DNA of 64,000 bases from NCBI GenBank assembly GCA_965204575.1, contig OZ241993.1:1312001-1376000 (forward strand). Direction: 5' to 3'. The stretch's first letter is position 1, and each line of letters begins with the position of its first letter. Both the position numbers and the translations under genes were made by a program. Positions 3,900 to 59,149 of this stretch are shown here, piece by piece. The notes beneath the pieces were generated by a model. The model saw nothing but the letters and a program-made list of their open reading frames with translations, did not search any database and had not been told where the DNA came from. The DNA is from an uncultured candidatus Porisulfidus sp. GTDB lineage: Bacteria > Pseudomonadota > Gammaproteobacteria > Poriferisulfidales > Poriferisulfidaceae.

Positions 3900-3972
3900 C
3901 AGTTCACGTCTCCTTACTGCTCAGCCTGCACCTGTTTGGGTCTGCCAATGCATGTTTTCTGAATCCACGCGA

Positions 3973-27887: not shown

Positions 27888-28082
27888 GATCCGGCGCCCG
27901 CCGACGGGCTTTTGCCTCCGAATCCCGACCGGGGTCCTGTCCGGGATGAACACGAAGCCCGGCGGGCCGCTTCTTCCGGCAGGAGGTTTTTTCGCCCGGA
28001 AGCGCACCCGCCCTGCTGCCGCATGCCCGCCGGACGCTCGCCCGTAAGTCGCTCCGGGCATTTCGCTGGCGCAGGCTTCGCG

Positions 28083-29684
28083 ATGCTGGCGGGAAGATTC
28101 GGCTCGGTTTCCGGCTGGCAGCGCGCGGCTCTCGCCACCGCCCTTGGCATCCTGACCACGACGGCGTTGCCGCCCGGCAACCTCCTGGCGCTGCTGGTGG
28201 TTGCCCTGACCGGATTCGTCTGGCTGATTCATGCCAGTCCTTCGCCGTGGCGGGCCTTGGGCGTGGGCTGGTGGTTCGGATTCGCCCACTTCCTGACCAG
28301 CCTTTTCTGGATCGGCCCGGCCCTGAGCTTTGGCTCCCCGCATCTCGGCTGGCTGGTCGCGCCGGCGATGGTTGGCCTGTCGGCGGGTCTCGCCCTGTTC
28401 CCGGCGCTTGTCGCTTTTGCCGCGCGGCTCCCGGCGTTGCCCATTGCCGGGCGCGTGCTCGCCGTTGCCATTGCCTGGACCGTCTCGGAGTGGCTGCGCG
28501 GCAATATCCTGAGCGGATTCCCGATCAACCTCCTGGGTTCGGTCTGGACGCCATCGCTCGGGATGATCCAGGGCGCCGCATTTGTCGGGGTCTATGGACT
28601 CAGTTTCGTGACGGTCCTCGCCGCCGCCGCGCCTGCAGCGCTGGCCGTGCCGGAAGCGGAGCGTCTTCCTGGCCGCCGCCTGCGGCTGTTTCCTGCGGTG
28701 GCGTTCGGCTTGTTGGCAGCGGTTTGGGTGGGTGGAGAGATCCGCCTGGCACTGGCACCTGAACTGCCCGGGGCCGGCCCTCGCCTGCGCCTCGTGCAGA
28801 GCAACATCGAACAGAGGCTCAAGTGGGAAGATGAGATGCGCGAGGCGGCGCTGGATCTTTACGTCCGTCTCTCGCGCCGGTCGGGGCATGAAGCGGTGGA
28901 TCTCGTGGTCTGGCCGGAGTCGGCGGTGACTTTCTATCTTGACGAGGACCCGTCGTTGCGCGAGTTTCTCTCGCAGGCTGCGCCGCCGGGCGGGCATCTC
29001 GTGACCGGGACATTGCGGCGTACCCGCGTCGAAGATACGATCAATTTCTGGAACAGCCTCCAGACGCTGACGCCCTCTGGCGCGGTCGTAGCCAACTACG
29101 ACAAGCACCACCTGGTGCCTTTCGGGGAATACAACCCGTTGCGCAGGGTCTTCCCCTTTCCGGCTCTCGCCTACGGGTCACAGGACTACTCTGCCGGGCC
29201 GGGGCCGCGTAGCCTGCACCTGCCCGGCCTGCCGCCTTTCAGCCCGCTGATTTGCTATGAGGTCATCTTCCCGGGCATGGTCATCGATGATTCCGGGCCG
29301 GAGAGGGAGAGGCCGAAGTGGTTGCTGAACATCACCAACGACGCCTGGTTCGACGGCACGGCCGGGCCCCATCAACTGTTCCAGGCGGCCCGCCTGCGGG
29401 CGGTCGAGGAGGGCTTGCCCCTGGTGCGGGTGGCAAATACCGGCATTTCTGCGGTCGTTGATGCCTACGGCCGCGTGGTGGGGCAGATCGCGCAGAGGGA
29501 GGTGGGCGTGCTCGACATCTCGTTGCCGGGGGCGTTGGCCACCCTGCCGCCGCAGGCAAGGTTCGGCGACTGGATCCTTGCGGTTATGCTGCTTCTCGCC
29601 GCCGCCGCCTTGCTTGCGCAACGTCTGCGGGAGCAACCGGGAACCGGGTCGGGCGCCGGGAGAGTTCCGAATCTGCGCAGCTGA
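28083..29684 (+). CDS. lnt: Apolipoprotein N-acyltransferase (start uncertain: 27912, 28023 or 28083)
   Basis: Multiple TMs; EWLRG..GFP, WPES, YDKHHLVPFGEY, ICYE, NDAWF, RAVE.G. Confidence 0.92.
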   Translation: MLAGRFGSVSGWQRAALATALGILTTTALPPGNLLALLVVALTGFVWLIHASPSPWRALGVGWWFGFAHFLTSLFWIGPALSFGSPHLGWLVAPAMVGLSAGLALFPALVAFAARLPALPIAGRVLAVAIAWTVSEWLRGNILSGFPINLLGSVWTPSLGMIQGAAFVGVYGLSFVTVLAAAAPAALAVPEAERLPGRRLRLFPAVAFGLLAAVWVGGEIRLALAPELPGAGPRLRLVQSNIEQRLKWEDEMREAALDLYVRLSRRSGHEAVDLVVWPESAVTFYLDEDPSLREFLSQAAPPGGHLVTGTLRRTRVEDTINFWNSLQTLTPSGAVVANYDKHHLVPFGEYNPLRRVFPFPALAYGSQDYSAGPGPRSLHLPGLPPFSPLICYEVIFPGMVIDDSGPERERPKWLLNITNDAWFDGTAGPHQLFQAARLRAVEEGLPLVRVANTGISAVVDAYGRVVGQIAQREVGVLDISLPGALATLPPQARFGDWILAVMLLLAAAALLAQRLREQPGTGSGAGRVPNLRS

Positions 29685-30437: not shown

Positions 30438-30782
30438 ATGCGGAAATTATCCGTTTTATTTGCTGTCGTGATCTGTACGCCTGTTTTCGCGGGCAGCACC
30501 CTAGCCCCGAAACCAGACACGGCGTATCTCTGCAAGGAGAGCTATGAGACTGGATCCAATGCGAGGCATTCCTGCAACGGAGAGTCCTTTCACACGGTTA
30601 ATGACACCGACGCGAGAGTGGCCGCACACTGCGAGACCCACACGGCGAGGGAATGGCATCCCACGGAAATTACCCTCAACGCCGACTATTGCGGCGACCT
30701 GAGCAACTGCAACGGAGTCCTGACCAAGGGGCCGTGCAAGGATTGCGTGGACAAGAGGACGATGCGGAAGGTCGAGTGTTGA
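30438..30782 (+). CDS. Secreted Cys-rich mini-protein A (114 aa; CVNH-repeat-like)
   Basis: AAGGAGG RBS; Sec signal; 8 Cys in the mature part; LSNCNGVL motif; C-terminal Cys. Confidence 0.8.
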   Translation: MRKLSVLFAVVICTPVFAGSTLAPKPDTAYLCKESYETGSNARHSCNGESFHTVNDTDARVAAHCETHTAREWHPTEITLNADYCGDLSNCNGVLTKGPCKDCVDKRTMRKVEC

Positions 30783-30989: not shown

Positions 30990-31623
30990 ACCTGGAGAGG
31001 GTCACGGTCCGGTCTGCACCCTGCTGGTGTTCATCGACGATGCCACCAGCGAACTGCTGGCGTTGCGCTTCGTGCCGGTGGAGGACACCCGGGCTATCTG
31101 GGCCTGTTCCGAGAGTATGTGTGCCGCTATGGCCGGTCGGGCATCCTGTACACCGACCGGTACAGCGTGTTCCGGGTCAACCAGATCGGCAAGGAGGACT
31201 GCGAGACGCAGTTCGACCAGTCCTGGTCTGCGAGGGACTGGACGGGCAGGTTCGGGTGTTCCGCCGGGAGGCCGAGTTCGACTGGGCGCACGAGTTGCAG
31301 GTGACGGTGCTGAGGGAGAGCCGGTCGCGGGTTCAGGATGCGGACACCAAGGACCTGAACCGGGTCGTGAATCAAAAACTGGCCCAGGCCGCCGGCCCGA
31401 GCTACGTGCCGCTGCCGGATTATCCGTGGCGGAAGATGGGTCAGGTGGCGGTCGCGCTGGCTGAGGCGCGAAACGCCCAATCCGCTTCTTCGACCGGCGT
31501 GAATCCTTGAAAAATCCAGCCGATGAGCGGCTCGGCGCTTGACCCGGGGGGATTTCCATGAAATCCCGGGCTGCCGCCCGCCAATCCAACCGCAAAAGGG
31601 GAAATTTTAACTTTGTGTTGACA
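30990..31623 (+). pseudogene. Degraded ISNCY/IS1202-like transposase remnant with its right end
   Basis: CTLLVFIDDATS..LRFVP, YTDRYSVFRVN; frameshifts; terminal GGGGAAATTTTAACTTTGTGTTGACA. Confidence 0.75.
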
Positions 31624-31630
31624 CGGCCTG

Positions 31631-33522
31631 CCCCGATCCGCGAGCTAAGGCGATTTTGAGGGTTTTTCGAAGGTTGGAGGCTCGCCGCCACGGATTTTGA
31701 ACTGGAATGTGGCGAACCGGGGTGGATTTCTGGCGGAAAGAGGCAAGCCTCGCCCGATTTCCCGGTTTTCCGGCATGAGCGCGCAGGGCTTCGCAGGCCG
31801 CCCGCGGGCGGCCTCAAGGGACTCCATGCAGCAGGAGGTCAGGAGGTGTCGTAGGCCAGGCTGCGGCTCATTCGCCCCAGCGCCCGGTGTAGCTGATGCA
31901 CCCGCGACGGCTGGAACCGCAACCGCTGCACGCGGGCATGCCGCACCACTCGGGCCACGAGGGTCACCCAGTGTCGGCGCACCTGCTTCATCCGCGCCCA
32001 CAGCCAGTCCCGGCCGAGCGCGCAACGCCGCAGCACGGCGTTGAGGTTCAGGCTCAGCACTGCCAGATGCCACCAGGCGGCGTTGGCCCCGAACCGGCCC
32101 GACGGCATCAGGCCGCCGGCCAGGTCGTCCTTGAGCACCGCGTGCACCTCCTCGCCCCGCCCGCAGCGTTCATGCGCGAAGCGCACCAGTTCCGCCGTCG
32201 ACATCGCCAGCCCCGCGCCCTCGTCGGGTTCGACCGGATGCGGCAGGTTGGTCAGATAGACCCGGCAGCGCCAGGCCGGGGCGCCGTCGCGGGTCGGCAA
32301 CTCGTCGGGGTCGACGCCCAGCTCGCCCGGCAAGGCGCGCCGGGTGGCGACATGGCGCAGCAGCTGCCCGGCCTGCTTCGGCCGGGCGTTCCAGTCCGAG
32401 ACGTGATCCAGCTCGGCGCAGTGCAGCGCCGAGCCGAGGAGCGGCTGCCACCAGTCCTCCGGCGCCCGCGCCAGGGACTGCTTCATCGCCTTGCCCAGGT
32501 CCGCCGACACCACGAAGCCGATCACCCCGAAGCGGCGCAGCGCCGCCGGACGCGATGCCGGATCGTTGCAGAACCGCACTAGCGTCTTCTGGTAGCCGGC
32601 GCCGTCGCTGCGCACCCACACCCGCCGGATCGTCGGCGGCAGACCCGACACCACCCGCTCCAGCAGCTCCCGGTTGCGCACCCCGGCCGGCACGTTGCCG
32701 TCCCGGAACTCGGTGCCCAGCACCATCCCCAACTCCGGGCAGAACACCGACAGCGGCTGGTAGCCGCGCTCCCCCGGCACCTTGCCGGTCGCGCTGCGGT
32801 ACGTGGGCCGGGCCTCGCGCTTGCCCGACGCCACCACCGTCGCGTCCAGGTCCAGGGTCAACTCCTCCAGTTGCTGAACCTCGATCAGGCGGTCCCGCAG
32901 CCGCTCGGTCACCGCCTCGATCCGCCGCAACTCGTTCGCCGGTTCCGGCACCACCGCCCGCCCGGGCACCCGCGCCTGCGCCGCCGCCTCGTCCTGGAAA
33001 CGCCCCAACCAGTCCAACACCGAGCGCGCCGACGGAAAGGTCCGCTTGCGCCCGCCCCGGAAGCGCCGCGCCAGCTGCGCCGCCGGGATCCCCAGCACCG
33101 CCTCCTCGTAGGCGCGCACCAGCCGGCACAGGCTGGCGTCTTCCTCCAGCGCCGCCACGTCCGAGACCCGCTCGTGGCCGACCACGTTCAGCAACAGCAG
33201 GCTCAGCATCATCTGCCCGTCGTGCCAGCCCTGCCGGCCGGCCACCGGCACCGGCAGGTCGTGAAGCACGCCCGTGCGGCGCAGCAACTCCAGCCACAAG
33301 ACCAGCCCGCCGTGGGCGCTGGTCCGGGTCAGGTTCGGGTCGCCGTCGAGCGCGACCAAAGGGGAAAAACTGGACATATAATGAGACTCCCGGTTGGTTG
33401 TTGTTGACTCACCCAGTGGGTGAGTCGTCTAGCACCACCAAGTTTAACTGCTACACGCAGTTATTGCACAGCCAACCGGGACCTTTCTACTTCCTTTTAC
33501 TCAGGTAGCTCGCGGATCGGGG
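31631..33522 (-). mobile_element. IS1380-family insertion sequence, apparently intact
   Basis: Perfect 17-bp IRs (CCCCGATCCGCGAGCTA at 31631-31647 and 33506-33522) and a 5-bp target duplication GCCTG (31626-30, 33523-27). Confidence 0.92.
31839..33377 (-). CDS. IS1380-family DDE transposase
   Basis: TSAHGGL, LDLDAT, GYQPL, FRDGN, RSDGAGY, RCGRGEE...LK.D, FGANAAW. Confidence 0.9.
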   Translation of the reverse strand: MSSFSPLVALDGDPNLTRTSAHGGLVLWLELLRRTGVLHDLPVPVAGRQGWHDGQMMLSLLLLNVVGHERVSDVAALEEDASLCRLVRAYEEAVLGIPAAQLARRFRGGRKRTFPSARSVLDWLGRFQDEAAAQARVPGRAVVPEPANELRRIEAVTERLRDRLIEVQQLEELTLDLDATVVASGKREARPTYRSATGKVPGERGYQPLSVFCPELGMVLGTEFRDGNVPAGVRNRELLERVVSGLPPTIRRVWVRSDGAGYQKTLVRFCNDPASRPAALRRFGVIGFVVSADLGKAMKQSLARAPEDWWQPLLGSALHCAELDHVSDWNARPKQAGQLLRHVATRRALPGELGVDPDELPTRDGAPAWRCRVYLTNLPHPVEPDEGAGLAMSTAELVRFAHERCGRGEEVHAVLKDDLAGGLMPSGRFGANAAWWHLAVLSLNLNAVLRRCALGRDWLWARMKQVRRHWVTLVARVVRHARVQRLRFQPSRVHQLHRALGRMSRSLAYDTS

Positions 33523-33596
33523 GCCTGACGGATGGTGAGTCTGTATTATTTTCCGTGCTAGAATCCCATGGCTCAATTCATTTGCGAGGCATGGAC

Positions 33597-33938
33597 ATGG
33601 ATTTCAAGATTTTCTCCCTGGCGGCTTTATTCTCCGCCGCAGTGTTGCTGGTTTCCGTGTTGTCGGTCCCTGCGGGACCGGCGCACGCTTTCACGTCAAC
33701 CCCGGCCAATAAGGATCAAAGAACCATAGTCCAGAAGTGCCGTGAAGATTTCGACCGTTCTTCCGCAGGTTCAAGTTGTTCCAAGGTGACTTTCACGAAA
33801 GTCATGAACTACCGGTGCCGGATCGACTACACCTGCAGCAAGGCCGACGGCGGCACCCGCAAGGGCTGGAAGACGATTGACCCGGACGATTCCGCGTCTC
33901 TGAAAAACTGCGACGGCTGGCTCAAGACGAGTTGCTGA
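33597..33938 (+). CDS. Secreted Cys-rich mini-protein B (start 33591 or 33597)
   Basis: Signal ending AHA; C-x12-C-x12-C-x5-C-x24-C-x7-C; LKNCDGWLK. Confidence 0.85.
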   Translation: MDFKIFSLAALFSAAVLLVSVLSVPAGPAHAFTSTPANKDQRTIVQKCREDFDRSSAGSSCSKVTFTKVMNYRCRIDYTCSKADGGTRKGWKTIDPDDSASLKNCDGWLKTSC

Positions 33939-34016: not shown

Positions 34017-35204
34017 TCAGCTGTCGCGAAGGGCCTCGACCGGATCGAGCCGGGCGGCCCGGTAGGCGGGGTACAGGCCGAAGAAGATGCCGGCGGCGCT
34101 GGCCACGCCGACCCCCAGGCCGACGGCCAGCATCGAGACCTGGAACGCCCAGTCCGTAATCTGGCAGATGACCCAGGTTGCCCCGACTCCTGCCCCGACT
34201 CCGACCACGCCAGCCGCCAGCGACAGGACGATCGACTCGATCAGGAACTGGCCCTGGATATCGGCGCGGCGCGCGCCCAGGGCACGGCGGATGCCGATCT
34301 CCTGTCGTCGCTCGGACACCGAGACCAGCATGACGTTCATGACCCCGATGCCGCCGACGAGGAGCGAGATCCCGCCCACGGAACCCAAAAGAAGCGCGAA
34401 CAGCCGCATCTGCTTGTGCATCTGTTCGATCAGGTGCTCCGCGCTTCGCACGCGCACCTCGACGCCGGGCGACAGGCGCCGGAAGTAGTCGGCAATCTTC
34501 CTTTCCGCCACGACGTGATGGGTCCCCGGGCTCATGCGGGCCGTGATGTTGCGGATTTCCGGGCGGCGAAACACCCGCCGGGCGGTCGACAGGGGGATGA
34601 TGACGGCGCGGCTGACATCGAAGTCGCGCATGCCCTGCGGGGTTCGCCGCAATACGCCGACGATGGTGTACGCGTTCCCGGCCACCTCGAGGGCCTCGCC
34701 GATGAGGTTCCGGGTTCCGGCGTGGCGCAGGTCCGCGGCGATCTCCGGGCCGATGACGCAGAAGTACCGGCGCAAGTCGAGGTCGGAGATGTGGCGGCCG
34801 GATTCGAGTTTCAGCTTGTTGAGGTCGGGCAGGGTGGCGGTGGCCCCGATCAGCACCGCGTCTTTCGGTGCCCGCCGGGGCAGGGAGATCTGCGCGTATG
34901 AGTCCGCATAAGGAGCCGCCGCGGTGATGACGGAAAGCCTCGCGACGCCGCTGGCCTGCTCCGGGTCGATCGCGGAGAGGTCGCCCGAAGGACCGCGATG
35001 GTCAAGGCTGATGGTCAGGATGTCCGTGCCCAGTTCCTGGAATTGCTCGAGCGCCTCGTCCCGGGCGATGAGGCCCAGCGAAATCATCGCGATGACCGAG
35101 CCGATTCCGATCGCAATGCCGATCAGCGCAAGCAGGGTGCGTTGCTTGGCGGCGAGCAGGCTGCTCGCTGCTTCCTTGAGATTGGCCTGGACGAGAGGAA
35201 GCAT
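34017..35204 (-). CDS. MacB/FtsX-type ABC transporter permease
   Basis: RTLLALIGIAIGI, periplasmic domain, GGIGVMNVMLVSVSER..EIGIRRALGA, PAYRAARLDP. Confidence 0.93.
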   Translation of the reverse strand: MLPLVQANLKEAASSLLAAKQRTLLALIGIAIGIGSVIAMISLGLIARDEALEQFQELGTDILTISLDHRGPSGDLSAIDPEQASGVARLSVITAAAPYADSYAQISLPRRAPKDAVLIGATATLPDLNKLKLESGRHISDLDLRRYFCVIGPEIAADLRHAGTRNLIGEALEVAGNAYTIVGVLRRTPQGMRDFDVSRAVIIPLSTARRVFRRPEIRNITARMSPGTHHVVAERKIADYFRRLSPGVEVRVRSAEHLIEQMHKQMRLFALLLGSVGGISLLVGGIGVMNVMLVSVSERRQEIGIRRALGARRADIQGQFLIESIVLSLAAGVVGVGAGVGATWVICQITDWAFQVSMLAVGLGVGVASAAGIFFGLYPAYRAARLDPVEALRDS

Positions 35205-35216
35205 TCTGCCTTCCGG

Positions 35217-35963
35217 TCATTCGTCTCCCGAAACGGGGCCCGGCCTCTCCCGGGGCTCGACTTCGTTCAGGACGCCGTCGCGAATGCGGGTGCGCCGGGC
35301 ACACTGCTGGGCCACTTCCCGGTCATGCGTGATGATGATCCCGGTGAGCTGCTCCTCGGCGTTCAGCCGGATGAACAGTTGCATGATCTCGTCGCTGGTC
35401 TCGGCATCCAGGGCGCCGGTCGGTTCGTCAGCCAGCAGGATGTCCGGTTCGCCGACCAGGGCGCGGGCGATGGCGACGCGTTGCCGCTGCCCTCCGGACA
35501 TTTCGCCGGGGCGATGGCCTGCGCGGTCGCCGATGCCGACCTTGTCGAGCATTTCGCAGGCGCTGCGCTGCGCGACCGCCGAACCCGTGCCTCGGTACAC
35601 CAGCGGAACCGCCACATTCTCCCAGGCCGTCAGGCGCGGAAGCAGGTGGAAAGACTGGAACACGAAGCCGATGCTCGCGTTGCGCAGGGCGGAAAGATCG
35701 TCGTCGTCCAGCACGCCGACTTCCCGCCCATTCAGGGAAAAGGAGCCCGAATCCGACTGATCCAGAAGGCCTAGGATGTTCATCAGCGTGGACTTGCCGC
35801 AGCCCGACGGCCCCATGATCGACAGCAGGTCACCCGGGTACAGGTCGAGGCATACCCCTCGGAGGATCTCGGTGACGATCGGCCCCGTGGCATAACTCTT
35901 GCGGATGTCGACCAGGCTGAGTATGGCCTCCGCCGCCGGGCTCACGCTGTCCCGCCGGGTCAT
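35217..35963 (-). CDS. MacB/LolD-type ABC ATPase
   Basis: GPSGCGKST, GFVFQ, SGGQRQRVAIARAL, DEPTGALD, ITHD. Confidence 0.95.
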   Translation of the reverse strand: MTRRDSVSPAAEAILSLVDIRKSYATGPIVTEILRGVCLDLYPGDLLSIMGPSGCGKSTLMNILGLLDQSDSGSFSLNGREVGVLDDDDLSALRNASIGFVFQSFHLLPRLTAWENVAVPLVYRGTGSAVAQRSACEMLDKVGIGDRAGHRPGEMSGGQRQRVAIARALVGEPDILLADEPTGALDAETSDEIMQLFIRLNAEEQLTGIIITHDREVAQQCARRTRIRDGVLNEVEPRERPGPVSGDE

Positions 35964-37810
35964 CGCGAGGGTCCCGGCATCAGGATTTCCTGGCCGGTCG
36001 TGATGCCGCTGACGATTTCCACTGAGTCCAGGGTGGTCATCCCGATCTCCACCTCTACCGGTCCGATTTCGCCGGAATCCCGGTCGCGGACCCGCAGCCA
36101 GGACCGGCCCTCGCGGAGTTCCACCGCCTCGACCGGGACCAGTAGCGCGTCTTCCTTTTCATAGACCAGGACCTCGACCCGGGCGGACATGCCCAGGCGC
36201 AGCAGCCGGTGCTGTTCCTCCGTCAGGGTTTCCACGACGGCGTTGACCTCGAACAGCGGCTGCCGTCGATGTTCGCGCACGGGAATGGCCTGCGAGGAAA
36301 TACTGTCGACCTTGCCGTGCAGCACGGTCCCGGGGAAGGCGTCCCCCACGATCCGCGCCGGTTGTCCCGGACGAATCCGCGTGACGTCCACCTCGTCCAC
36401 ATGGACGACCACGGCGATGCCGCTGGTGTCCCCGATGGTCAGCAGCAGGTCGCCCCGATCAACCAGCGCGCCCTTGACCAGCTTGTCGCTGGCCGTGCCC
36501 GTCTTCGCCTCTGCGCCGTCCTTCCGCCTCGGATGCATCACCACGCCGGCCGCCGGCGCGGTGACGGCGGCCTTGCGCAGGATTTCCTCGATGCTTTCCA
36601 GCTGGGTGCGCGCGTTCTCCAGTTCTAGCCGCGCTACCTTCAGCCCGGGGACGCCTTTGTCCAGAACGGCCTGAAGTTCCTGTTCCGCCGTCTGCAGGTC
36701 CAGCGACTGGTTGCGGTGTTCCCGCTCGGCGGCCTCGTACTCCGAGGTGGGGATGATGCCCCGCTCCAGCAGGAACGCGGTTTCCTCAAGCCGGCTGTTC
36801 AGGGATTCCAGCTTGAGCCGGCTTTTGCTCACGGCCTGGCGGACCCGGGATACCTCGGCATGGTTGGACCAGTTCTCGAATGTCTCGACCTGTTCGCGCG
36901 CCTTGAGGTAGGTCACTTCCGCCTCGCGGCGGGAAATCTGGACCTTGGCCACGTCCATGTCCAGCAAGGCCTGGCCCTGGGCGACCCGCTGGCCGGGGCG
37001 GACATGCACCGCGCCCACCTTTCCCTTCATCGGGGCGGCCACCTCGACTTCCCGCTTCGGCGCCAGTTGCCCGGTCATGGCGACCGTGGACGAGATCCGC
37101 CCGGGCTCGACCACCAGGCTGCGGGCCTGTTCCGGGGCGCCGTGCGCCGTGCCTGCGATGTCGCTCCCGGAAGCTGGGAGACCCGCGTCCGGGCGGCTGT
37201 CCCAGAAGTACAGCCCGATCGCGACGAACAGGACCGGGACGGCCAAGGCCGCGCCCACCCGGATGGTCGTGATCTTCTTCGAGGCGACGCCCAGTTTCTG
37301 GTTTGTCTCCTCCAGTTCCCGGTAGGCATTTCGGAGTTCGGCGTGCTGTCCCTCCACCTCCTTGGCCAAGCGGAGTTCCTTCTCCCGCAATTCCCGGATC
37401 TCGGAGATGTCGTTGAACATCACGATGACGCCGGTCCAGAGGGCTTCGCCGTCCCGTTCCTCCTTCAGGTACGTCGTCGCCACGGACAGGGAGCGGGTCT
37501 CGCCGCCGAGCGTCGCCTCGACCACGCGCTGGTGGACTGCGGTGGAGTCGTAGACGGCCTCGAAGATGATGTCGAGAAACTGGTCCAGGCCCTCCTTGTC
37601 GGCAAAAACCTCCCCGAACCGGCTTCCCACGACCGCGGCGCTGTCCAGGCCGAAGATGCTCTCCGCCGCCGCGTTGAAGCTGGTAATGATTCCGTCGGTG
37701 TCCAGGGACATGACCCCGCTGGCCACATTGTCCAAGATGTTCCGGTAGATCAGGCCGGAAGCCTCGCGGCTTTCGTCGGGAAGGGGAGGGCTGGAGCGGC
37801 GCGCGTTCAC
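35960..37810 (-). CDS. Membrane-fusion (MacA/HlyD-like) adaptor with N-terminal PAS domain
   Basis: About aa 20-137 PAS-like (ILDNVASGVMSLDTDGIITSFNAAAESIFG...VMFNDISE), coiled coil, one TM, then lipoyl/hairpin/beta-barrel MFP motifs (VDEVD..IRPGQ, LRLGMSA). Confidence 0.88.
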   Translation of the reverse strand: MNARRSSPPLPDESREASGLIYRNILDNVASGVMSLDTDGIITSFNAAAESIFGLDSAAVVGSRFGEVFADKEGLDQFLDIIFEAVYDSTAVHQRVVEATLGGETRSLSVATTYLKEERDGEALWTGVIVMFNDISEIRELREKELRLAKEVEGQHAELRNAYRELEETNQKLGVASKKITTIRVGAALAVPVLFVAIGLYFWDSRPDAGLPASGSDIAGTAHGAPEQARSLVVEPGRISSTVAMTGQLAPKREVEVAAPMKGKVGAVHVRPGQRVAQGQALLDMDVAKVQISRREAEVTYLKAREQVETFENWSNHAEVSRVRQAVSKSRLKLESLNSRLEETAFLLERGIIPTSEYEAAEREHRNQSLDLQTAEQELQAVLDKGVPGLKVARLELENARTQLESIEEILRKAAVTAPAAGVVMHPRRKDGAEAKTGTASDKLVKGALVDRGDLLLTIGDTSGIAVVVHVDEVDVTRIRPGQPARIVGDAFPGTVLHGKVDSISSQAIPVREHRRQPLFEVNAVVETLTEEQHRLLRLGMSARVEVLVYEKEDALLVPVEAVELREGRSWLRVRDRDSGEIGPVEVEIGMTTLDSVEIVSGITTGQEILMPGPSR

Positions 37811-39330
37811 GGGGCCGCCTCCCGGTCTACGTCGCGGATCTCGATGTTCCAGGACTCCAGCGTCGTCCCCAGGGTGCGGTCCAGCGAGGTCACGGCCGTC
37901 TGATGGGCGATGATCGAGTCCAGTTCGTTGTTTTGCGCCGACACCAGGTCGTCCTCGAAGGTGACCAGGCGGAAGTTCGACGACAGGCCGAGGCGCAGTT
38001 TTTCCCGTTCGACCGCCACCTTCTGTTCCACGAGTTCGCGGGCAGAACGCGCGAGTTCCACCTGGCGGTGGGACAGTTCCACTTCCCGAAGCGCGTTGCT
38101 CACCTCGATGTCGACGCGCTGGCGCAGGTTCGCGAGACTGTTCCGGGCCTTCCGGAGGAGGGTCGTGGCCTGCACGTATTTCTGTTTTCTGGGGTCGGCC
38201 GCCGCCCAGATCGGAATGCTGAGGTCGAACCGGATGGCATGGTCGGTGCCGTCGAAATGGCCGGCGCCGCCCGGTGTCGAATCAATGCCGGCCAACCGGG
38301 CCGACAGCGTCGCCGAAAGGTCCCACAGGCGCTCGCTCTCGGCCGCCTCGACCCGGGCTTCCGCGATCTCGACGCCGAGGATCGCCTGCAGGTAGTCCGG
38401 GCGGTGCTGCCGGGCCTCCCCGATGCGGTCCGCCATTGCAGCCGGCCTCGGTTTGTCGGGAAGCGTCTCCGAGAGGGTGTCGGTCAGCCGGATCCGGGTG
38501 TGGCTGTCGATGTCGAGGACGTCGGTCAGCGCCAGGCGGGCGGCATCCAGGCGGTTGCGCGCGGCGACCAGTTGCAATTCGCGGCCGGCGATGTCGGCTT
38601 TCGTCTGGACCACGTCCCGCTCCGCCATCCGCCCGCTGCGCACGAGCAGTTCGTTCACCTCGAGCAGGCCCTGGGCGCGCTGGAGGGACTGGCTGCGGAT
38701 TTCTGCGCGATGTTCAGCCTGCATGTAGTCCCGATAGACATTGATGACCGACGTGACGACATCGATGATCGCCTGCTTGAGCGTGAGAACATTGCTCTTT
38801 TCCACGGCCTGGGCGATCCGCACCGAGGCCGTGTTGACCCCGACGCCCGCGCCGCGCAGCAGAGGCTGGGTGAACCTGAACACCAGCTCGTTGGAGTACC
38901 GCGACCGCGAGGGCGCGTCGCCGCCCCGGCGGATGCCGTCCCAGTCGAGGTTGAATTCCCCGCCGGTGGGGATGCGCAGCATGACGGTCGATCCCACGCC
39001 GGTTGCGGCAAGGTCCGAGGACGGCGCGGTGTGCGTCCGGTCAAAGTGAGAATCGAACGTCACATGCGGGCGGAACTTGTTCTCCGCCACTCGCAGGGCG
39101 AAACGTTCCGTGATGCGGTCCAGCCGCGCGCCGATCAGTTGTCGGTTGTTGCGGAGGGTCAGGAGGACAGCCTCTTCAAGAGAAAGGTCGAGGCGATTCG
39201 GTGGATCGCTTCCAGGCTCCGCCCCCAGCCCGGGGACGGAGGAACAAGACAGGCCGATTGCGACAATGGCAGGTTCGATCAAGCATCGCCTGCAACTTCG
39301 GCATGGTGCCTTGGGGGCTGCTGAGAACAT
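37807..39330 (-). CDS. TolC-family outer-membrane channel
   Basis: LSLEEAV...NN..L, FTQPLLRG, RPD, LSIPI, E.EKL.LG.SS; first gene of the exporter operon. Confidence 0.88.
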   Translation of the reverse strand: MFSAAPKAPCRSCRRCLIEPAIVAIGLSCSSVPGLGAEPGSDPPNRLDLSLEEAVLLTLRNNRQLIGARLDRITERFALRVAENKFRPHVTFDSHFDRTHTAPSSDLAATGVGSTVMLRIPTGGEFNLDWDGIRRGGDAPSRSRYSNELVFRFTQPLLRGAGVGVNTASVRIAQAVEKSNVLTLKQAIIDVVTSVINVYRDYMQAEHRAEIRSQSLQRAQGLLEVNELLVRSGRMAERDVVQTKADIAGRELQLVAARNRLDAARLALTDVLDIDSHTRIRLTDTLSETLPDKPRPAAMADRIGEARQHRPDYLQAILGVEIAEARVEAAESERLWDLSATLSARLAGIDSTPGGAGHFDGTDHAIRFDLSIPIWAAADPRKQKYVQATTLLRKARNSLANLRQRVDIEVSNALREVELSHRQVELARSARELVEQKVAVEREKLRLGLSSNFRLVTFEDDLVSAQNNELDSIIAHQTAVTSLDRTLGTTLESWNIEIRDVDREAAP

Positions 39331-39644: not shown

Positions 39645-39992
39645 TCAGCAACTCCCGACCTTCAGCACCAACCGACCGCAGTGGTGCAGGTTGCCGACAT
39701 CCCCTTTCGACACGCCGGTGACGCTGGCATCCCCACGGTTATCGCCGGTAGTGATCTGGTACTTGCATGTGGCGAAGAAATTGCACTTGTTGTGTTCCAC
39801 CCACGTATTCTTCAAATAACAGGTCTGGCTGGCAGGCGAACTGCTCCATGCCGAAGTGCAGTCACCGGTTGTGACGGACGGCGCGGAGGTGAACGCGTGC
39901 ACCGGCTCCGCAGGAATCGACAACGCGGAAGCCAGCAGCAATGCGGCGGAGAAAAAGGCCGCCAAGGAGAAAATATTGAAATTCATGCTCAT
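39645..39992 (-). CDS. Secreted Cys-rich mini-protein C
   Basis: Leader close to that of B; C-x12-C-x11-C-x5-C-x28-C-x9-C; GAGG RBS. Confidence 0.85.
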   Translation of the reverse strand: MSMNFNIFSLAAFFSAALLLASALSIPAEPVHAFTSAPSVTTGDCTSAWSSSPASQTCYLKNTWVEHNKCNFFATCKYQITTGDNRGDASVTGVSKGDVGNLHHCGRLVLKVGSC

Positions 39993-40772
39993 ACCTCACG
40001 AGTGTATTCGTCAAGGAACTGGACAATAGGGATTCTAGCACGGAAAGCGGTTTTACGCGCCCTTTCGAGCCCTTTCTTATGGAAAGTGGTGGGGTCGCTC
40101 GGCAAAGCTGACTTATCAAGATACTGATACTTGTGGACATGGATCACCCGTCAAGTTAGGTATATATCCCTATCTATCAGAAACCCAACCCTACGGGTTT
40201 GGGTTTTCTGATGCAACTGTATAGAGAAAAGTCGAATGCGGCCCGTTCGCTTCGCTTGCTCTGCCGAGAACTGCTGGCAGAATACGCCCGGCATCGTCTC
40301 CGGCAGTTAGTCTTTGCGGTAATTGGCTGTCGCTCACTGTCGGCAGTATCCAACCGACATCATGGCTCCAGTCCAACCCGACTCGCAAAGCAAGGTTATC
40401 CAATGCCGGGCAGTCGGAAATCTGGCGGCAGGTGCACAAGCGCACCCGACCGAGGGCAGGGATCGGGTTTGCCGTCTGCCCGGCAGGGAAGCACCGCACG
40501 GCGGCCGGTCTCGGCCGCCGCGTCTTGGAAAACTCGAACTCGCGGTTATGAGCGTCCGCAATCGGGCAAGGGAACCCTGCCCGGATGCGCCTTTTTGCCT
40601 GTCTATTGGAGTGCGCATCGAGTTTTCCATACACCCCCTCACGGATCGAGGGCGGGCCGGCGCATCCAGCAGGGTTTTGGCTAGCCGGGGTGCTTCCCTT
40701 TCGGGCTATCTGGGCGTAAAAATTTTCTGAAAAATAAAAATCTGACCCAGATAGCGGTCTGACCTGCCGCCG

Positions 40773-40828
40773 GGCGCGAGCCGTGATAGGAAACCTATCA
40801 CCGGGCGGCCCGGATCAACCGGCTGGCC
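40773..40828 (+). repeat. 56-bp direct repeat, copy 1, with core palindrome GTGATAGG-AAA-CCTATCAC
   Basis: Identical to 41746-41801. Confidence 0.9.
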
Positions 40829-40927
40829 GGCTCGACTCCCTGCGCCCGGCGCGGGTCGGCGCGGGGCGTGGGCTGGGGCCGTGCTTCGCGAAGCGTGCAG
40901 ACCGGGCGGCAGGGGCGCGTCCGGCCA

Positions 40928-41218
40928 TTAGCAGACCTGAACCCCCAGGGCTCCCTTGCAGTTGTACAGTTTGTCGGCTTCCTCCGGCTTTGTCCTCTTG
41001 GCCGTGGAGGATAGCGTTTCATTTACCGAGCGGCACCACGCCATGATTTTGCAGTAGCCGCCGCCGACATCCGCATATTGAATATCGGTGCAACTCTGAT
41101 AGGCGGAACTCGCCTCAAACTTCTCCTTGCAGATGTCCACAAGGGGCCTGGGTTTCGGTGCCAGTCCGTATGCCGGAGACAAGGCCAGCATCAGGATCAG
41201 CGTGATGGTTTTCTTCAT
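40928..41218 (-). CDS. Secreted Cys-rich mini-protein E (96 aa)
   Basis: AGGAGG RBS; MKK signal peptide; LAPKP as in A; C-x12-C-x12-C-x5-C-x24-C-x8-C. Confidence 0.87.
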   Translation of the reverse strand: MKKTITLILMLALSPAYGLAPKPRPLVDICKEKFEASSAYQSCTDIQYADVGGGYCKIMAWCRSVNETLSSTAKRTKPEEADKLYNCKGALGVQVC

Positions 41219-41483: not shown

Positions 41484-41523
41484 GGGCATCATGCCGGCGC
41501 GAGCCGTGATAGGAAACCCATCA
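41484..41523 (+). repeat. Partial third copy of the palindromic repeat
   Basis: GGGCATCATGCCGGCGCGAGCCGTGATAGGAAACCCATCA vs 41733-41773. Confidence 0.8.
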
Positions 41524-41745
41524 GCGGATGGCAACACAACCTAGACAAATCGCTGGCCAAGCCTGGCCGCGAAGCACACAATTCCATGCGCAAAGCGCAA
41601 CACAACCTAAACACCGCACGGAGAGCGTCTTACCAGAGCACCCACCCTGGAGAACTCAATTTGGAGACACTCTCGGCTTTGATACCGAACGACAAAACGG
41701 CAGAAATCGACCTAGAACCGACAAATCGGCTAGGGCATCAATGCC

Positions 41746-41801
41746 GGCGCGAGCCGTGATAGGAAACCTATCACCGGGCGGCCCGGATCAACCGGCTGGC
41801 C
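41746..41801 (+). repeat. 56-bp direct repeat, copy 2
   Basis: Identical to 40773-40828. Confidence 0.9.
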
Positions 41802-41811
41802 AGATCGAACC

Positions 41812-42157
41812 TGTCAAACCAAAGCTGAAATTTCCCCTTTTTCGGTTGGGCTGGCGAGCGGCAGCCCGGGATTTCATGGAAATCCCCCCGGGTCAAGCGC
41901 CGAGCCGCTCATCGGCTGGATTTTTCAAGGATTCACGCCGGTTGAAGAAGCGGATTGGGCGTTTCGCGCCTCAGCCAGCACGGCCGCCGCCTGACCCTTC
42001 TTCCGCCACGGATGATCCGGCGGCGGCCCGTAGCTCGGGCGGGCGGCCTGGGCCAGCTTTTGATCCACGATCCGGTTCAGGTCCTTGGTGTCCGCCGCCT
42101 GAACTGCGTCTCGCAGTCCTCCTTGCCGATCTGGTTGACCCGGAACACGCTGTACCG
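41812..42157 (-). pseudogene. Second, inverted remnant of the ISNCY/IS1202-like element
   Basis: Begins TGTCAAACCAAAGCTGAAATTTCCCC; reverse complement matches ~31158-31623 with an internal deletion. Confidence 0.8.
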
Positions 42158-42797
42158 TTGGCGGGCGCGTTACCAGGCGAAGGGGCTGCGGGGGCTTCGT
42201 CCGCGCAGCCGGCGTCCGCGGCGTTGCCGGCGGAAGCGTTGGGCGCCGGAGCTGACGCGGCGGCTGATCCAGTTGCGCCAGGCCCATCCGGGCTGGGGCA
42301 AGCAGAAGCTGGCGGTGCTGCTGCACCGCGAGGGCCACGCGGTCTCGGTGAGCACGGTCGGGCGGATGGTCAGCGAGCTGTTGCGACGGGGCCGGATCGC
42401 ACGCAGCCCCCGAAGAACCAAGCGCAGGCGGGCCTCCCGCCCGCGTCCGTGGGCGCAGCGCGGCTGGGGCGGGCTGGAGACGTGATCGGCAAGGTGGTGC
42501 AGGTCGACACGATGACGGTGACGCCCTATTACGGCTTCCGCTTCAAGCAGTTCACCGCGGTCGACGTGGCCAGCCGCTACTTGGTCGGGGCGCTGTACAG
42601 CCGGGCCACCGCGGCGTGCGCGGCCCGCTGCACGGAAATGGCGGCGGATCTGGAGGGGGCGCGGCGGCAGTGGGCCGAGTGGGAGGACACCTACAACCGG
42701 GTCCGGCCGCATCAAAGTCTCGGCCTGAAGACCCCGATTCAGTATATTAGGTCACGATCGTCAAGCAGGGCGTGTTCCCAAATGTCCTGAGCCCACA
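42147..42797 (+). pseudogene. IS481-family transposase remnant
   Basis: TLYRWRARY...GL.PRSRRP, HPGWGK.KL, VQVDT, FTAVDVASRY, YNRVRPHQSLGLKTP; frameshifted and deleted; probable end ...ATGTCCTGAGCCCACA. Confidence 0.75.
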
Positions 42798-42861: not shown

Positions 42862-43998
42862 ATGGCTTGGAACGACAACGGTGGAAACCCGTGGCAGCGC
42901 AATGCGCGGCAGGGGCCGCCGGACCTGGATGACCTGTTCGGAAACCTGTTCCGGCGCCTGTTCGGTTCGGGCCGCAAGGGCGGCGGGGGCGGGGGCGGCC
43001 GCAAGTGGTCGGTCGGCACCGGCAGCGTCCTGCTCGTCCTCCTGATCCTGTGGCTGCTGTCCGGCTTCTACATCGTCGAGGCCAGCGAGCGTGGCGTCGT
43101 GCTCCGCTTCGGCAAGCACGAGCGCACCACCATGCCGGGGCCGGGATGGCACATCCCGTATCCGGTCGAAAGCGTCGAGGTGGTCAACGTGACCGGCAAC
43201 CGGAGCGTGGAGAAGCGGACCACCATGCTGACCCAGGACGAGAACATCGTCGAACTCAAGTTCTCGGTGCAGTACCGGCTCAAGAATGCCGAAGACTACC
43301 TGTTCAACGTCGAGAACCCGGACATCGAGTTCGACCGCGCCTGCCGCTTCAAGAGCACCATCTGCGGCGTGCTCGACAGTGCCATCCGCACCGTGGTGGG
43401 GCGCAACAACATGGACTTCATCCTGCGCGAGGGCCGCGCGGAAATCGCCAGCCGGACCATGGCGCTGATGCAGGAGATCCTCGACGCCTACGGCACCGGC
43501 ATCGAGATCCTGACGGTCAACCTGGAGGACTCGCAGCCGCCGAACGCGGTGCAGGACGCCTTCCAGGACGCGACCAAGGCGCGCGAGGACATGGAGCGAT
43601 TCAAGAACGAGGCGCAGGCTTACGCCAACGAGGTCCTGCCGCAGGCCCGCGGCGAGGCCGCGCGGATGCTGGAGGACGCCAAGGCCTACCGCGCCCAGGT
43701 GATTGCCAACGCCGAAGGCGAGGCGTCCCGCTTTACCCAGTTGCTGACCGAGTACCGCAAGGCGCCGGAAGTCACCCGCCAACGCATGTATCTGCAGGCA
43801 GTGGAGTCGGTCCTTTCCAATTCTTCCAAGGTGATGGTCGATGTCGACAAGGGGAGCAACATGCTGTTCCTGCCGCTGGACCGGATCCTGGAGCAACGCG
43901 GCCCGGCCCGGCCGCCGAATTCTTCATCCCTGGACCGGCAGGGAGGAAGTTCCTCAGGTTCCGGAAGTCTCGCCCCACGCTTGAGGGAGGGACGCTGA
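42862..43998 (+). CDS. hflK: FtsH modulator HflK
   Basis: MAWN...PW...GPPDLD, SPFH domain. Confidence 0.96.
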   Translation: MAWNDNGGNPWQRNARQGPPDLDDLFGNLFRRLFGSGRKGGGGGGGRKWSVGTGSVLLVLLILWLLSGFYIVEASERGVVLRFGKHERTTMPGPGWHIPYPVESVEVVNVTGNRSVEKRTTMLTQDENIVELKFSVQYRLKNAEDYLFNVENPDIEFDRACRFKSTICGVLDSAIRTVVGRNNMDFILREGRAEIASRTMALMQEILDAYGTGIEILTVNLEDSQPPNAVQDAFQDATKAREDMERFKNEAQAYANEVLPQARGEAARMLEDAKAYRAQVIANAEGEASRFTQLLTEYRKAPEVTRQRMYLQAVESVLSNSSKVMVDVDKGSNMLFLPLDRILEQRGPARPPNSSSLDRQGGSSSGSGSLAPRLREGR

Positions 43999-43999
43999 G

Positions 44000-44860
44000 A
44001 TGAACCTGCAGGTCCGCCTGATCCTGGCTGCCATCGTGGTGGTGCTGGTCTGGGCCTCTACGTTCTACGTACGCCAGACCGAGACGGCGATCGTGTTCCA
44101 GCTCGGCGATATCCGGCGCGCAGGCTTGGAGCCGGGGCTGCACTTCCAGATGCCGTTCATCAACAACGTGCAGAAATTCGACGCCCGGGTGCTGTCGCTG
44201 GATTCCAAGCCGGAGCTGTTCCTGACCAGCGAGAAGAAGAACGTGTCGGTGGACTTCTTCGTCAAGTGGCGGATCAAGAACGTCAGCCAATACTTCCGTG
44301 CCACCCAGGGCGACCGTGCACGTGCCGAGGGGCGGTTGACCCAGATCGTCAAGGACGGGCTCAAGAACCAGTTCGGCGTGCGCACCATCCAGCAGGCGAT
44401 CTCCGGCGAGCGGCGCGAGATCATGGACGTGCTGCAGGTGCAATCCAACCGCAACGCGAGCGAGCTTGGCATCAAAGTGGTGGATGTCCGCATCAGCCGC
44501 ATCGAGTTGCCGGACGAGGTCAGTGATTCGGTCTATCGCCGGATGCGCGCGGAGCGCAGCCGGACGGCCAAGGACTTTCGCGCCCGCGGCCAGGAGACGG
44601 CGGAACGGATTCGCGCCGACGCCGACCGCCAGCGCACGGTGATTCAGGCCGAGGCGTACCGCGACGCGGAGAAGATTCGCGGCGAGGGCGATGCCCAATC
44701 CACCGAGATCTATGCCGAGGCCTACAACCAGGATCCCGAGTTCTTTGCGTTCACCCGAAGCCTGAACGCCTACGTCAATACGTTCCGCGACAAGGGCGAC
44801 GTGCTGGTGATGGAACCGGACTCGGAGTTCTTCCAGTACTTCAAGCAACTCCAGAAGTAA
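44000..44860 (+). CDS. hflC: FtsH modulator HflC
   Basis: PGLHF, RMRAER, RGEGDA, FF.F.RSL. Confidence 0.96.
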   Translation: MNLQVRLILAAIVVVLVWASTFYVRQTETAIVFQLGDIRRAGLEPGLHFQMPFINNVQKFDARVLSLDSKPELFLTSEKKNVSVDFFVKWRIKNVSQYFRATQGDRARAEGRLTQIVKDGLKNQFGVRTIQQAISGERREIMDVLQVQSNRNASELGIKVVDVRISRIELPDEVSDSVYRRMRAERSRTAKDFRARGQETAERIRADADRQRTVIQAEAYRDAEKIRGEGDAQSTEIYAEAYNQDPEFFAFTRSLNAYVNTFRDKGDVLVMEPDSEFFQYFKQLQK

Positions 44861-56981: not shown

Positions 56982-57479
56982 ATGAAACTGAATGCGAAAG
57001 GACGTTATGCCGTAACCGCCATGCTGGACGTGGCGCTGCACGGCGAGGAAGGGCCGGTGGCACTTGCGGGCATCGCCGAGCGCCAGGGCATCTCGCGCTC
57101 TTACCTTGAGCAGCTGTTCTCCCGCCTGAGGCGGGCCGGATTGGTCGACAGCGTGCGCGGGCCCGGCGGCGGATACTGCTTGGCGCGGGACGTGCCGGAG
57201 ATCTCGATCGCCGAGGTGATCGCGGCGGTCGACGAAAGCGTGGATGCGACGCGCTGCGGCGGTCGCGAGAACTGCCAGGACAACCAGCCCTGCCTGACTC
57301 ACGGCCTGTGGGAGGAGTTGGGCCGTGAAATCGAGCGCTACCTGGGCCGCGTCAGCCTGGCGGATGTGCTTCGCCAGCAGCGGGTCCGCGAAGTGGCCTT
57401 GCGCCAGAACGTAAAGTTTGCCGAACACCGCGGGTTCCCCGCGGGGTCGGCCATGGAAGGGCGGGAGGCCGTGTTGTGA
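56982..57479 (+). CDS. iscR: Fe-S cluster assembly regulator IscR
   Basis: [27 protein letters not shown]-x5-C-x5-C..H. Confidence 0.95.
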
Positions 57480-58699: not shown

Positions 58700-58723
58700 C
58701 AATGCTAAGCAGGAGAAAACATC

Positions 58724-59149
58724 ATGGCATATGGAAAAAAAGTTCTGGATCACTATGAGAACCCGCGCAACGTCGGTTCGCTGGACAAGGACGACGCGCA
58801 GGTGGGCACCGGCATGGTCGGCGCGCCGGCCTGCGGGGACGTGATGAAGCTTCAGATCAAGGTCAGCGACGAAGGCGTGATCGAGGACGCCAAGTTCAAG
58901 ACCTACGGCTGCGGCTCGGCGATCGCGTCGTCCAGCCTGTTGACCGAGTGGGTGCGCGGCAAGACCCTGGCGGAAGCCGGCGAGATCCGCAACACCGACA
59001 TCGCGGAGGAACTGGCATTGCCGCCGGTGAAGATCCACTGCTCGGTGCTGGCGGAAGACGCCATCCAAGCGGCGATCGAGGACTACGAAGGCAAGCAGGG
59101 CCGCAAGGCCGGCGCGCCGGACGAGGCAGAACTGGCGGAAGCCGTCTGA
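58724..59149 (+). CDS. iscU: Fe-S scaffold IscU
   Basis: [20 protein letters not shown]. Confidence 0.97.

Follow-up and report, generated by a model that had tools for sequence, protein, structure and literature searches.

MacB carries no substrate across the inner membrane; ATP-driven mechanotransmission expels substrate that is already periplasmic through the adaptor and TolC (PMC5985334). According to the same source, the adaptor MacA stimulates MacB's ATPase, and deletion of either the cytoplasmic region or the transmembrane (TM) helix of MacA abolishes this stimulation and also resistance (PMC5985334). Deletion of the N-terminus of DevB, a related adaptor, is described as blocking export with assembly intact, and the TM helix of MacA is unresolved, which leaves the structural basis of ATPase stimulation obscure (PMC5985334). 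The stoichiometry of the pump is given as MacA6:MacB2:TolC3. Adaptors of ATP-binding cassette (ABC) transporters and of systems for type 1 secretion (T1SS) are described as carrying sizeable cytoplasmic domains without known structure (PMC8277102). Here we analyse a stretch of 64,000 nucleotides (in the following the window) from an uncultured candidatus Porisulfidus sp. of the Gammaproteobacteria (assembly GCA_965204575.1, contig OZ241993.1, positions 1,312,001 to 1,376,000), in which a MacA-like adaptor gene (35960..37810, minus strand) encodes a PAS domain and a coiled coil ahead of its TM helix. The fusion is found in a conserved family of pump adaptors, and we hypothesize that it may gate the secretion of small cysteine-rich proteins encoded nearby.

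The adaptor is a protein of 616 aa encoded by an uninterrupted open reading frame (ORF). Its PAS domain, predicted to lie in the cytoplasm, comprises residues 20-134 (37409..37753, minus strand). It is recognized by PF00989 (40.7 bits against a cut-off of 22.6, residues 22-135) and by TIGR00229 (42 bits against 22.9), and the profiles PAS_4, PAS_8 and PAS_9 likewise exceed their cut-offs on the adaptor N-terminus. The PAS motif GVMSLDTDGIITSFNAAAESIFG and the terminal D134-I-S-E137 are both present. An AlphaFold2 (AF2) model of residues 1-205 alone, computed from an alignment of 39 sequences, reaches a predicted local distance difference test score (pLDDT) of 90.4. It displays an N-cap helix (13-28), the canonical five-stranded sheet (32-37, 41-45, 95-101, 104-119, 122-134) and the helices 47-53, 57-60, 65-70 and 76-87. 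Foldseek comparison of this N-terminal model with the PDB returned 400 chains at E<=0.001, those listed being sensor PAS domains; the best matches were 7yx0, 8js5, 7r5n, 4gcz and 9cmf (E 4.5e-8 to about 2e-6). The best-ranked folds comprise the short LOV proteins 7yx0 and 7r5n, the FixL PAS dimer 8js5, a WalK model, YF1 (4gcz) and DosP, all of which have an N-cap and end in a long helix. When residues 1-185 were searched against PDB sequences, only PAS proteins came up, namely ThkA, photoactive yellow protein (PYP) and FixL.

The PAS domain leads through its DISE exit motif into a cytoplasmic coiled-coil linker (residues 135-183; 37262..37408, minus strand), recognized by its heptads and its conservation. 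The linker is continuous with a single TM helix (residues 184-204; 37199..37261, minus strand), which is supported by hydropathy (2.15), charge bias and structure prediction. In both AF2 models, linker and TM segment form one unbroken helix of 69 residues (136-204). The heptad register runs from a=138 and d=141 to d=183 (I138 to I183), and 11 of the 15 a/d positions are hydrophobic. Among the 80 homologous loci described below, 72 sequences carry the exit motif DI[TS]E (DITE in 50, DISE in 22). The 12 residues flanking the TM helix bear a mean net charge of +2.8 before and -0.9 after it (77 of the 80 sequences were measurable). As positive charge precedes the TM helix and negative charge follows it, the N-terminal 184 residues of the adaptor are predicted to be cytoplasmic.

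To gauge conservation, 78 distinct members of the family were aligned with MAFFT. Mean pairwise identity is highest in the coiled coil (0.515), which is the best-conserved region of the family, followed by the periplasmic adaptor part (0.45), the PAS domain (0.405), the TM helix (0.354), the periplasmic linker (0.18) and the N-terminal tail (0.11). Four residues, D134, L159, A162 and E167, are invariant in all 78 sequences. Judged from this alignment, the PAS domain and the coiled coil are under strong purifying selection. The span from D134 to R184 is 51 residues long in 71 of the 78 members and 44, hence one heptad shorter, in 3; spans of 49 (3/78) and 50 (1/78) are out of phase and form exceptions to the fixed-phase pattern. 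The linker thus combines a DIT-type exit motif, continuous heptads and a length kept in phase (with these four exceptions), as linkers between PAS domains and their effectors do. A conserved "HAELR" in the coiled coil was considered as a relic of a histidine-kinase H-box. The HisKA profile found no match to residues 131-185 even at E<=1, and H156 is kept in 50 of the 78 sequences only, for which reasons this idea was dropped.

The periplasmic adaptor domains (residues 233-616; 35963..37114, minus strand) have a MacA-like fold. TIGR01730 (RND_mfp) matches at 107.3 bits against a cut-off of 94.9, HlyD_D23 and HlyD_3 match too, and the matched region extends over approximately residues 240-613. 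The AF2 model of the full-length adaptor (alignment of 40 sequences, mean pLDDT 83.8) shows lipoyl, alpha-hairpin (288-412), beta-barrel and membrane-proximal domains, with residues 205-227 disordered between the TM helix and these domains. In a Foldseek comparison of the full model with the PDB, MacA chains rank first (9qgy_G, E 3.1e-25; 5nik_D, E 6.0e-23) with target TM-scores of 0.72 (9qgy) and 0.67 (5nik), and AcrA and MexA are among the further top folds. The best match, 9qgy, is a MacAB-TolC complex with the small accessory lipoprotein YbjP.

The adaptor gene is embedded in an operon for a complete MacB-type pump. The first gene encodes a TolC-like outer membrane factor of 507 aa (37807..39330, minus strand; PF02321 OEP, 123.9 bits, in two stretches). 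The adaptor follows with a GTG start codon, which is preceded by GGGAGG 7 nt upstream. Next come a MacB/LolD-type ABC ATPase of 248 aa (35217..35963, minus strand; PF00005, 113.6 bits) and a MacB-type permease of 395 aa with MacB_PCD and FtsX domains (34017..35204, minus strand; PF12704, 105.8 bits; PF02687, 78 bits). Against NF007826, the ATPase scores 234.7 bits over the MacB nucleotide-binding domain (NBD) part, which is under the whole-protein cut-off of that model. All four genes lie on the same strand. At two junctions the ORFs share 4 bp: GTGA, where the TolC-like ORF ends and the adaptor begins, and ATGA, where the adaptor ends and the ATPase gene begins with its ATG. The ABC ATPase next to the adaptor, the permease bearing MacB_PCD and FtsX domains and the outer membrane factor together identify a MacB-type tripartite pump. 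The window genome is a single contig of 1.82 Mb (98.75% complete), in which the adaptor gene is single-copy.

The fused architecture is that of an entire family. A search of 5.8 billion protein clusters, with 8000 candidates scored, gave 227 matches at E<=0.001. The 120 matches that were listed are mostly 570-628 aa long, at identities of 45-100%, and Pfam calls PAS in 116 of them. Four entries of 480-514 aa (P0104, P0106, P0113, P0115) were considered as PAS-less forms and rejected: they start inside the PAS domain, still hold its tail and represent truncated gene calls. One genome from each of 185,579 species was scanned with a pattern, which brought up 149 relatives; their best 80 loci were used here. 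The full-length fusion is present in 79 of these 80, the exception (L052) being cut by a contig end. With the window proteins as tblastn queries, the outer membrane factor was found beside the adaptor in 77 of the 80 loci; for the ATPase the count is 74 and for the permease 75. The usual gene order is outer membrane factor, adaptor, ATPase, permease; six loci (L021, L031, L033, L035, L036, L037) show the order ATPase, permease, outer membrane factor, adaptor. A profile of the N-terminal 205 residues, run exhaustively with HMMER against 1.84 billion representatives (50% identity), yielded 710 matches at E<=1e-30, and the best 150 were classified. Eighty of them combine PAS, coiled coil and TM helix with an adaptor, 52 are unrelated multi-PAS proteins whose scores are summed over many domains, 9 are short forms (190-355 aa) with PAS, coiled coil and TM helix and no adaptor, either fragments or split forms, and 9 are other partial matches. 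None of these best 150 representatives joins the module to a different output domain. In the ESM Atlas, three clusters with 52, 52 and 65 members were found at a score of 0.99, automatically named as PAS-domain protein, efflux adaptor and PAS/PAC sensor. Two representatives, P0176 (1064 aa) and P0228 (896 aa), carry the PAS, coiled coil and TM module with a partial adaptor followed by several hundred residues, and may represent read-through or fusion.

The structural picture agrees with what an earlier note on this DNA, made from the letters and ORFs alone, had proposed. The PAS hallmarks named there are present, and its reservation that the N-terminus might lack a PAS fold is answered by Pfam and NCBIfam matches above cut-off, by AF2 and by Foldseek. 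Its count of about 180 extra residues before a single TM helix corresponds to one hydrophobic segment at 185-203 with approximately 184 residues before it, and its likening of the coiled coil to PAS-effector linkers is backed by heptads, exit motif and fixed length. The continuity of the ORF and the overlaps of 4 bp with both neighbours, from which it had taken the fusion to be genuine, are confirmed by the ORF coordinates and by the GTGA and ATGA junctions. The fusion is moreover kept at full length in 79 of 80 loci and in at least 80 clusters at 50% identity, so that the homologues are fused and not always split genes, as the note had conceded they might be. Finally, it had called the long cytoplasmic N-terminus atypical for adaptors, and this holds as well, since the closest ESM Atlas clusters that lack PAS consist of ordinary adaptors with 365-428 aa in total. 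A full-text literature search outside subscription journals showed no paper on a PAS-fused adaptor among those listed. The architecture is already in the databases, unremarked.

Small genes for secreted proteins with six cysteines surround the pump operon, and each of them is a candidate for its cargo. One, of 96 aa, lies upstream of the operon (40928..41218, minus strand) and matches its own family profile at E 1.5e-22. A second, of 115 aa, lies immediately upstream of the outer membrane factor gene (39645..39992, minus strand). A third, convergent with the permease gene, has 115 aa from an internal Met (33591..33938, plus strand; its ORF opens at 33420), and a fourth paralogue, with a short extra C-terminal tail, has 114 aa from an internal Met (30438..30782, plus strand; its ORF opens at 30222). 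All four carry signal peptides and are mutually paralogous (blastp 1e-6 to 1e-16). A fifth copy in the genome (G000:C1:1095323-1095616, plus strand) is located about 250 kb away with no pump near.

An iterated family profile of 99 positions matches 103 ORFs: 5 belong to the window genome, and the other 98 are spread over 45 of the 80 loci. The matches span the mature domain, beyond the signal peptide; the mature proteins have approximately 75-90 aa. Exactly six cysteines are found in 50 of the 103 ORFs, a C-terminal cysteine in 72, and the signature reads C...S-x-A-x2-[ST]-C...C-x5-6-C...L-x-N-C-x-G-x-L-x3-4-C at the C-terminus. Some loci hold, next to the pump, triple-tandem forms of 274-304 aa with 18 cysteines (L070:10162-12579, L076:10356-13249, L078:7243-8082, L080:7242-8081). 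The family has no Pfam or NCBIfam match. An NCBIfam hit named "BRANT" was discarded, as it sits in the signal peptide and is under its cut-off. In the database of 5.8 billion clusters, a word-prefiltered search found 35 matches at E<=1e-5, none of them with a Pfam domain and with "hypothetical protein" as the only source name. Comparison of the profile with the PDB returned cyanovirin-N only (E 0.046-0.063, about 16 bits), which is not significant and gives no more than a lead towards a lectin-like fold.

The neighbourhood of these genes points to the pump. The median distance of the 98 ORFs to the edge of the pump module is 645 bp, and 62 of them lie within 1 kb. The position taken most often (46/98), and also by two copies in the window, is on the same strand and upstream of the module. 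In the window genome (1.8 Mb), four of the five copies flank the pump operon. In five other genomes (about 23 Mb together), all 23 matches at E<=0.001 are located within approximately 12 kb of a PAS-adaptor locus, among them all 13 matches in the genome with two pump copies. This association suggests that the Cys-rich proteins are likely cargo of the pump. A locus holds 1-9 Cys-rich genes, with a mean column identity of 22%, and proteins so numerous and diversified look more like secreted effectors or bacteriocin-like cargo than like a stoichiometric subunit.

Based on this dataset, we propose the following mechanism. The Cys-rich proteins would be exported by Sec, oxidized in the periplasm and expelled through the outer membrane by the pump. 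Each pump would carry six PAS modules, probably as three parallel dimers as in the closest structural relatives, positioned some 70 Å below the membrane, the length of 49 helical residues at 1.5 Å per residue, and beside or under the ATPase dimer. The PAS domain would sense a cytoplasmic state or a small ligand; its signal would cause a rotation or piston motion of the rigid helix, which would be passed to the TM helix of the adaptor and alter either ATPase stimulation or assembly, so that secretion of the Cys-rich proteins would be switched after translation. We lean slightly towards this view, in which the state of the PAS domain is relayed by the rigid helix to the adaptor TM helix. Direct post-translational gating by PAS appears plausible by analogy, because the N-termini of MacA and DevB provide precedents, and it is consistent with strong purifying selection, with the fixed linker length and with the deletion data for these two adaptors. 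Transcriptional control may exist in addition to gating. An Rfam scan of the whole window gave no match, and consensus scans returned no sigma-70-like site and 8 terminator-like sites against 6.6 expected. The structural part of the earlier interpretation (PAS fold, coiled coil, genuine unsplit fusion) stands, and its gating part, that export would be controlled directly by a cytoplasmic signal, is consistent with the data. The candidate cargo genes, the mobile island and the spread among genomes of the sponge type, on which the note was silent, were found here.

The PAS-adaptor is patchily distributed among close relatives. Among 40 relatives, a full-length profile matches 5 of 15 congeners, at widely differing scores (566-973 bits), and none of the 25 genomes that represent three further families of the order. 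Among 400 evenly sampled genomes of the class, representing 320 genera, the N-terminal module was found in 2, both from the genus of the window and one of them the window genome itself; this count is a floor, as scoring took in only part of the candidates in each genome. The 80 loci belong to metagenome-assembled genomes (MAGs) labelled as Gammaproteobacteria (28), Alphaproteobacteria (28), Binatia (9), Acidobacteriota (7), Thermodesulfobacteriota (2), Gemmatimonadota (1) and Chloroflexota (1), and a Nitrospinae record is among the protein matches to the adaptor. The family thus extends over at least six named phyla of MAGs. When 80 adaptors, L052 not among them, are placed on a maximum-likelihood tree, the phylum labels need 13 changes, the minimum being 5. 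Sister copies of the adaptor are held by a Thermodesulfobacteriota and a Binatia chromosome (branches 0.08 and 0.12). Short contigs carry identical copies in L043/L044 (Gammaproteobacteria and Gemmatimonadota), near-identical copies in L078/L080 (Alphaproteobacteria and Acidobacteria) and identical or near-identical copies in L020/L032 (Alphaproteobacteria and Chloroflexota); these three pairs may reflect either very recent transfer or mis-binning. Several bin prefixes resemble those of what we take to be known sponge metagenome studies. Record titles contain the sponge-derived names Candidatus Poriferihabitaceae and Porisulfidus, both of which are named in abstracts of sponge genome notes.

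In the window, the pump operon and three of the Cys-rich genes lie between two inverted arms of an insertion sequence (IS) remnant (31158..31623 and 41812..42157), which are 92-100% complementary. A DDE transposase ORF (31839..33377, minus strand; PF13701, 68.8 bits) adjoins the left arm, and the right arm lies inside an ORF with an integrase-core fragment (41528..42790, plus strand; PF13683, 31.8 bits). The island as a whole lies between hflX-lnt (26619-29684) and hflK-hflC (42862-44860), interrupting this run of genes. As the fusion is patchy among relatives, the phyla are interleaved on the tree and the island is flanked by IS remnants, the sequence data indicate an accessory cassette moving horizontally within a shared habitat. 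Three direct repeats of 42-63 nt were also observed near the right end of the island (40768-40835, 41491-41532, 41741-41808).

A wider reading would join these lines into a hitherto undescribed, symbiont-specific two-step secretion of a diversified family of small disulfide-rich, possibly lectin-like proteins, gated by PAS and encoded on a cassette of cargo, sensor and pump that moves between phyla sharing a host niche. Release to the sponge host matrix or to competitors would then occur only when the PAS domain, acting through the rigid, phase-locked coiled coil, switches on the MacB ATPase, and the secretion machine would bring its own checkpoint after translation. We put this forward tentatively, as a possibility that we do not consider the probable one.

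Several observations weigh against gated secretion of dedicated cargo in symbionts. In the alignment of 78 sequences, conservation stays under 50% for every Cys, His and Trp at residues 20-134, and the window adaptor has no Cys within the segment aligned to the chromophore region of PYP. LOV domains and PYP depend on a conserved adduct-forming Cys, and FixL-type domains on a haem-ligating His on the F-alpha helix. Chemistry of the LOV, PYP or FixL type appears unlikely in the adaptor PAS domain, because its core lacks a conserved Cys, His or Trp. Many PAS domains serve as dimerization modules only. As for the cargo, the assignment is one by gene neighbourhood, 35 of the 80 loci show no Cys-rich gene within 6 kb, and the triple-domain forms (about 280 aa) exceed a possible bound of approximately 10 kDa on MacB cargo (PMC5985334). 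The apparent link to sponges draws on a few taxon names in record titles and not on habitat metadata.

The main rival to gating takes the PAS domain and coiled coil as a constitutive scaffold, which would pair or bundle the six N-termini or dock them on the ATPase, and so stabilize the pump or help its correct assembly, with no ligand or signal involved. The lack of a cofactor or ligand signature in the PAS domain and the frequent role of such domains in dimerization would suit it, as would the fact that the coiled coil, and not the PAS core, is best conserved. The conserved residues R142, Y163, N170, E167 and E137 fall on the heptad positions e, g and b, where a protein-protein interface would place them, and these positions fit gating and scaffold alike. 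Against a scaffold speaks the full signalling anatomy that is kept here (N-cap, DI[ST]E, fixed linker and a variant shorter by one heptad), which is typical of relays from PAS to effector; moreover, the nearest PAS-less adaptors assemble without such a module. We regard a purely structural role as unlikely.

Alternatively, the locus may encode an ordinary efflux or self-protection pump for a small molecule or lipid, the Cys-rich proteins being either a periplasmic accessory or a separate family that is mobilized together with it. MacB-type pumps also move macrolides, siderophores, glycolipids and porphyrin (PMC5985334), the best structural match of the adaptor contains a small accessory protein in YbjP, and 35 loci lack a detectable Cys-rich gene. 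Yet the Cys-rich family occurs only beside these pumps in the five further genomes (23/23), it is multi-copy and diversified, and no conserved biosynthetic genes lie beside the module in the window. This explanation thus seems quite unlikely to us. Lastly, a reversed signal, by which the adaptor would report the state of pump or cargo to the cytoplasm and the PAS domain would control a partner encoded elsewhere, in the manner of BceAB-type flux sensing, appears very unlikely: MacA may tell the NBDs of periplasmic substrate and MacB relatives act in antibiotic sensing (PMC5985334), and a rigid helix transmits either way, but no kinase, cyclase or regulator gene is conserved next to the module, which has outer membrane factor, NBD, permease and Cys-rich genes as its only conserved neighbours, and none of the best 150 of the 710 representatives bears an output domain on it.

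Two further regions of the window differ from their surroundings. A restriction-modification enzyme of the MmeI type, in which each of the five MmeI Pfam domains is present, is encoded at 1086-3899 (minus strand). Beyond the MmeI gene, likewise on the minus strand, lie an ORF of 1363 aa at 3973-8064, which matches no Pfam family, and at 8046-9308 a gene for an AAA_14/DUF4143 ATPase. With a G+C content of 0.55-0.57 against about 0.65, the region 1086-9308 may be a defence island. An ORF of 446 aa at 57418-58758 (plus strand) has a third-position G+C content of 0.41, where the ORFs around it have 0.6-0.9, and matches no Pfam family at E<=1e-5; this ORF may be a non-gene or foreign DNA.

Returning to the gating of the pump by PAS, a natural family with a well-folded PAS and coiled-coil N-terminus offers a handle on the coupling of adaptor and ATPase. 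If gating holds true, it would be a post-translational regulation of a tripartite pump of a kind that we did not find described in the literature searched, and it could serve in building switchable secretion. The 6-Cys proteins constitute a family of uncharacterized secreted proteins and, because they are apparently confined to MAGs of the sponge kind, candidate mediators of interactions between host and symbiont or among symbionts. The single parts of the system are known; their combination, the dedicated cargo family and the distribution among sponge-type MAGs appear to be undescribed.

With respect to cargo, the nearest described cases are the heat-stable toxin STII of Escherichia coli, which takes a route via Sec, DsbA and MacAB-TolC, and the 10-kDa protein dispersin, which is exported by a MacB-type pump (Aat system) (PMC5985334). 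As proposed for the 6-Cys family, a MacB-type pump takes up small proteins from the periplasm, which they reach by Sec and where STII has disulfide bonds, and expels them. Their sequences are unrelated to the 6-Cys family, which has no Pfam, NCBIfam or significant PDB sequence match, and the account of these systems in PMC5985334 does not describe a sensor domain on the adaptor. HlyD-type adaptors of T1SS likewise have an N-terminal TM anchor and a sizeable cytoplasmic domain, which is said to be essential for substrate recognition and assembly (PMC8277102). In contrast to HlyD, the window adaptor scores 48.8 bits against a cut-off of 208.65 for TIGR01843, and its partner is of the MacB type, not the HlyB type. 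The candidate cargo differs as well: it carries Sec signal peptides and hence would not be a one-step cytoplasmic substrate.

DevB, of the DevBCA-HgdD system of Anabaena, resembles the window adaptor in being the adaptor of a split MacB-type ABC exporter. It differs in its glycolipid cargo and in sequence (58.2 bits against a cut-off of 129 for TIGR02971), and a PAS domain is not reported for it in PMC5985334. The sensors closest to the N-terminal module (short LOV proteins, FixL, YF1, WalK, DosP) share with it the N-cap, the PAS core, a DIT-type exit and, at the C-terminus, a long helix engaged in a parallel coiled coil. Their output is a kinase, cyclase or DNA-binding domain, whereas here it is a TM helix with a pump adaptor, and the window family is devoid of the conserved Cys or His for flavin, coumarate or haem. 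E. coli MacA has in common with the window adaptor the four-domain periplasmic fold, a single N-terminal TM helix, a MacB-type partner and a TolC-like duct. Identity is approximately 21%, the score against the equivalog NF008606 is 70.7 bits versus 342, and the window pump, unlike MacAB-TolC, has NBD and permease as separate genes. As the scores against these equivalog and subfamily models are far under their cut-offs, we regard the adaptor, on profile evidence, as MacA-type in action and not as an orthologue of MacA, DevB or HlyD. In comparison with MacA, its N-terminus is a cytoplasmic module of 183 residues, in which the short cytoplasmic N-terminus of an adaptor would have been replaced by an N-cap, a PAS domain, the DI[ST]E exit motif and a coiled coil of about 49 residues.

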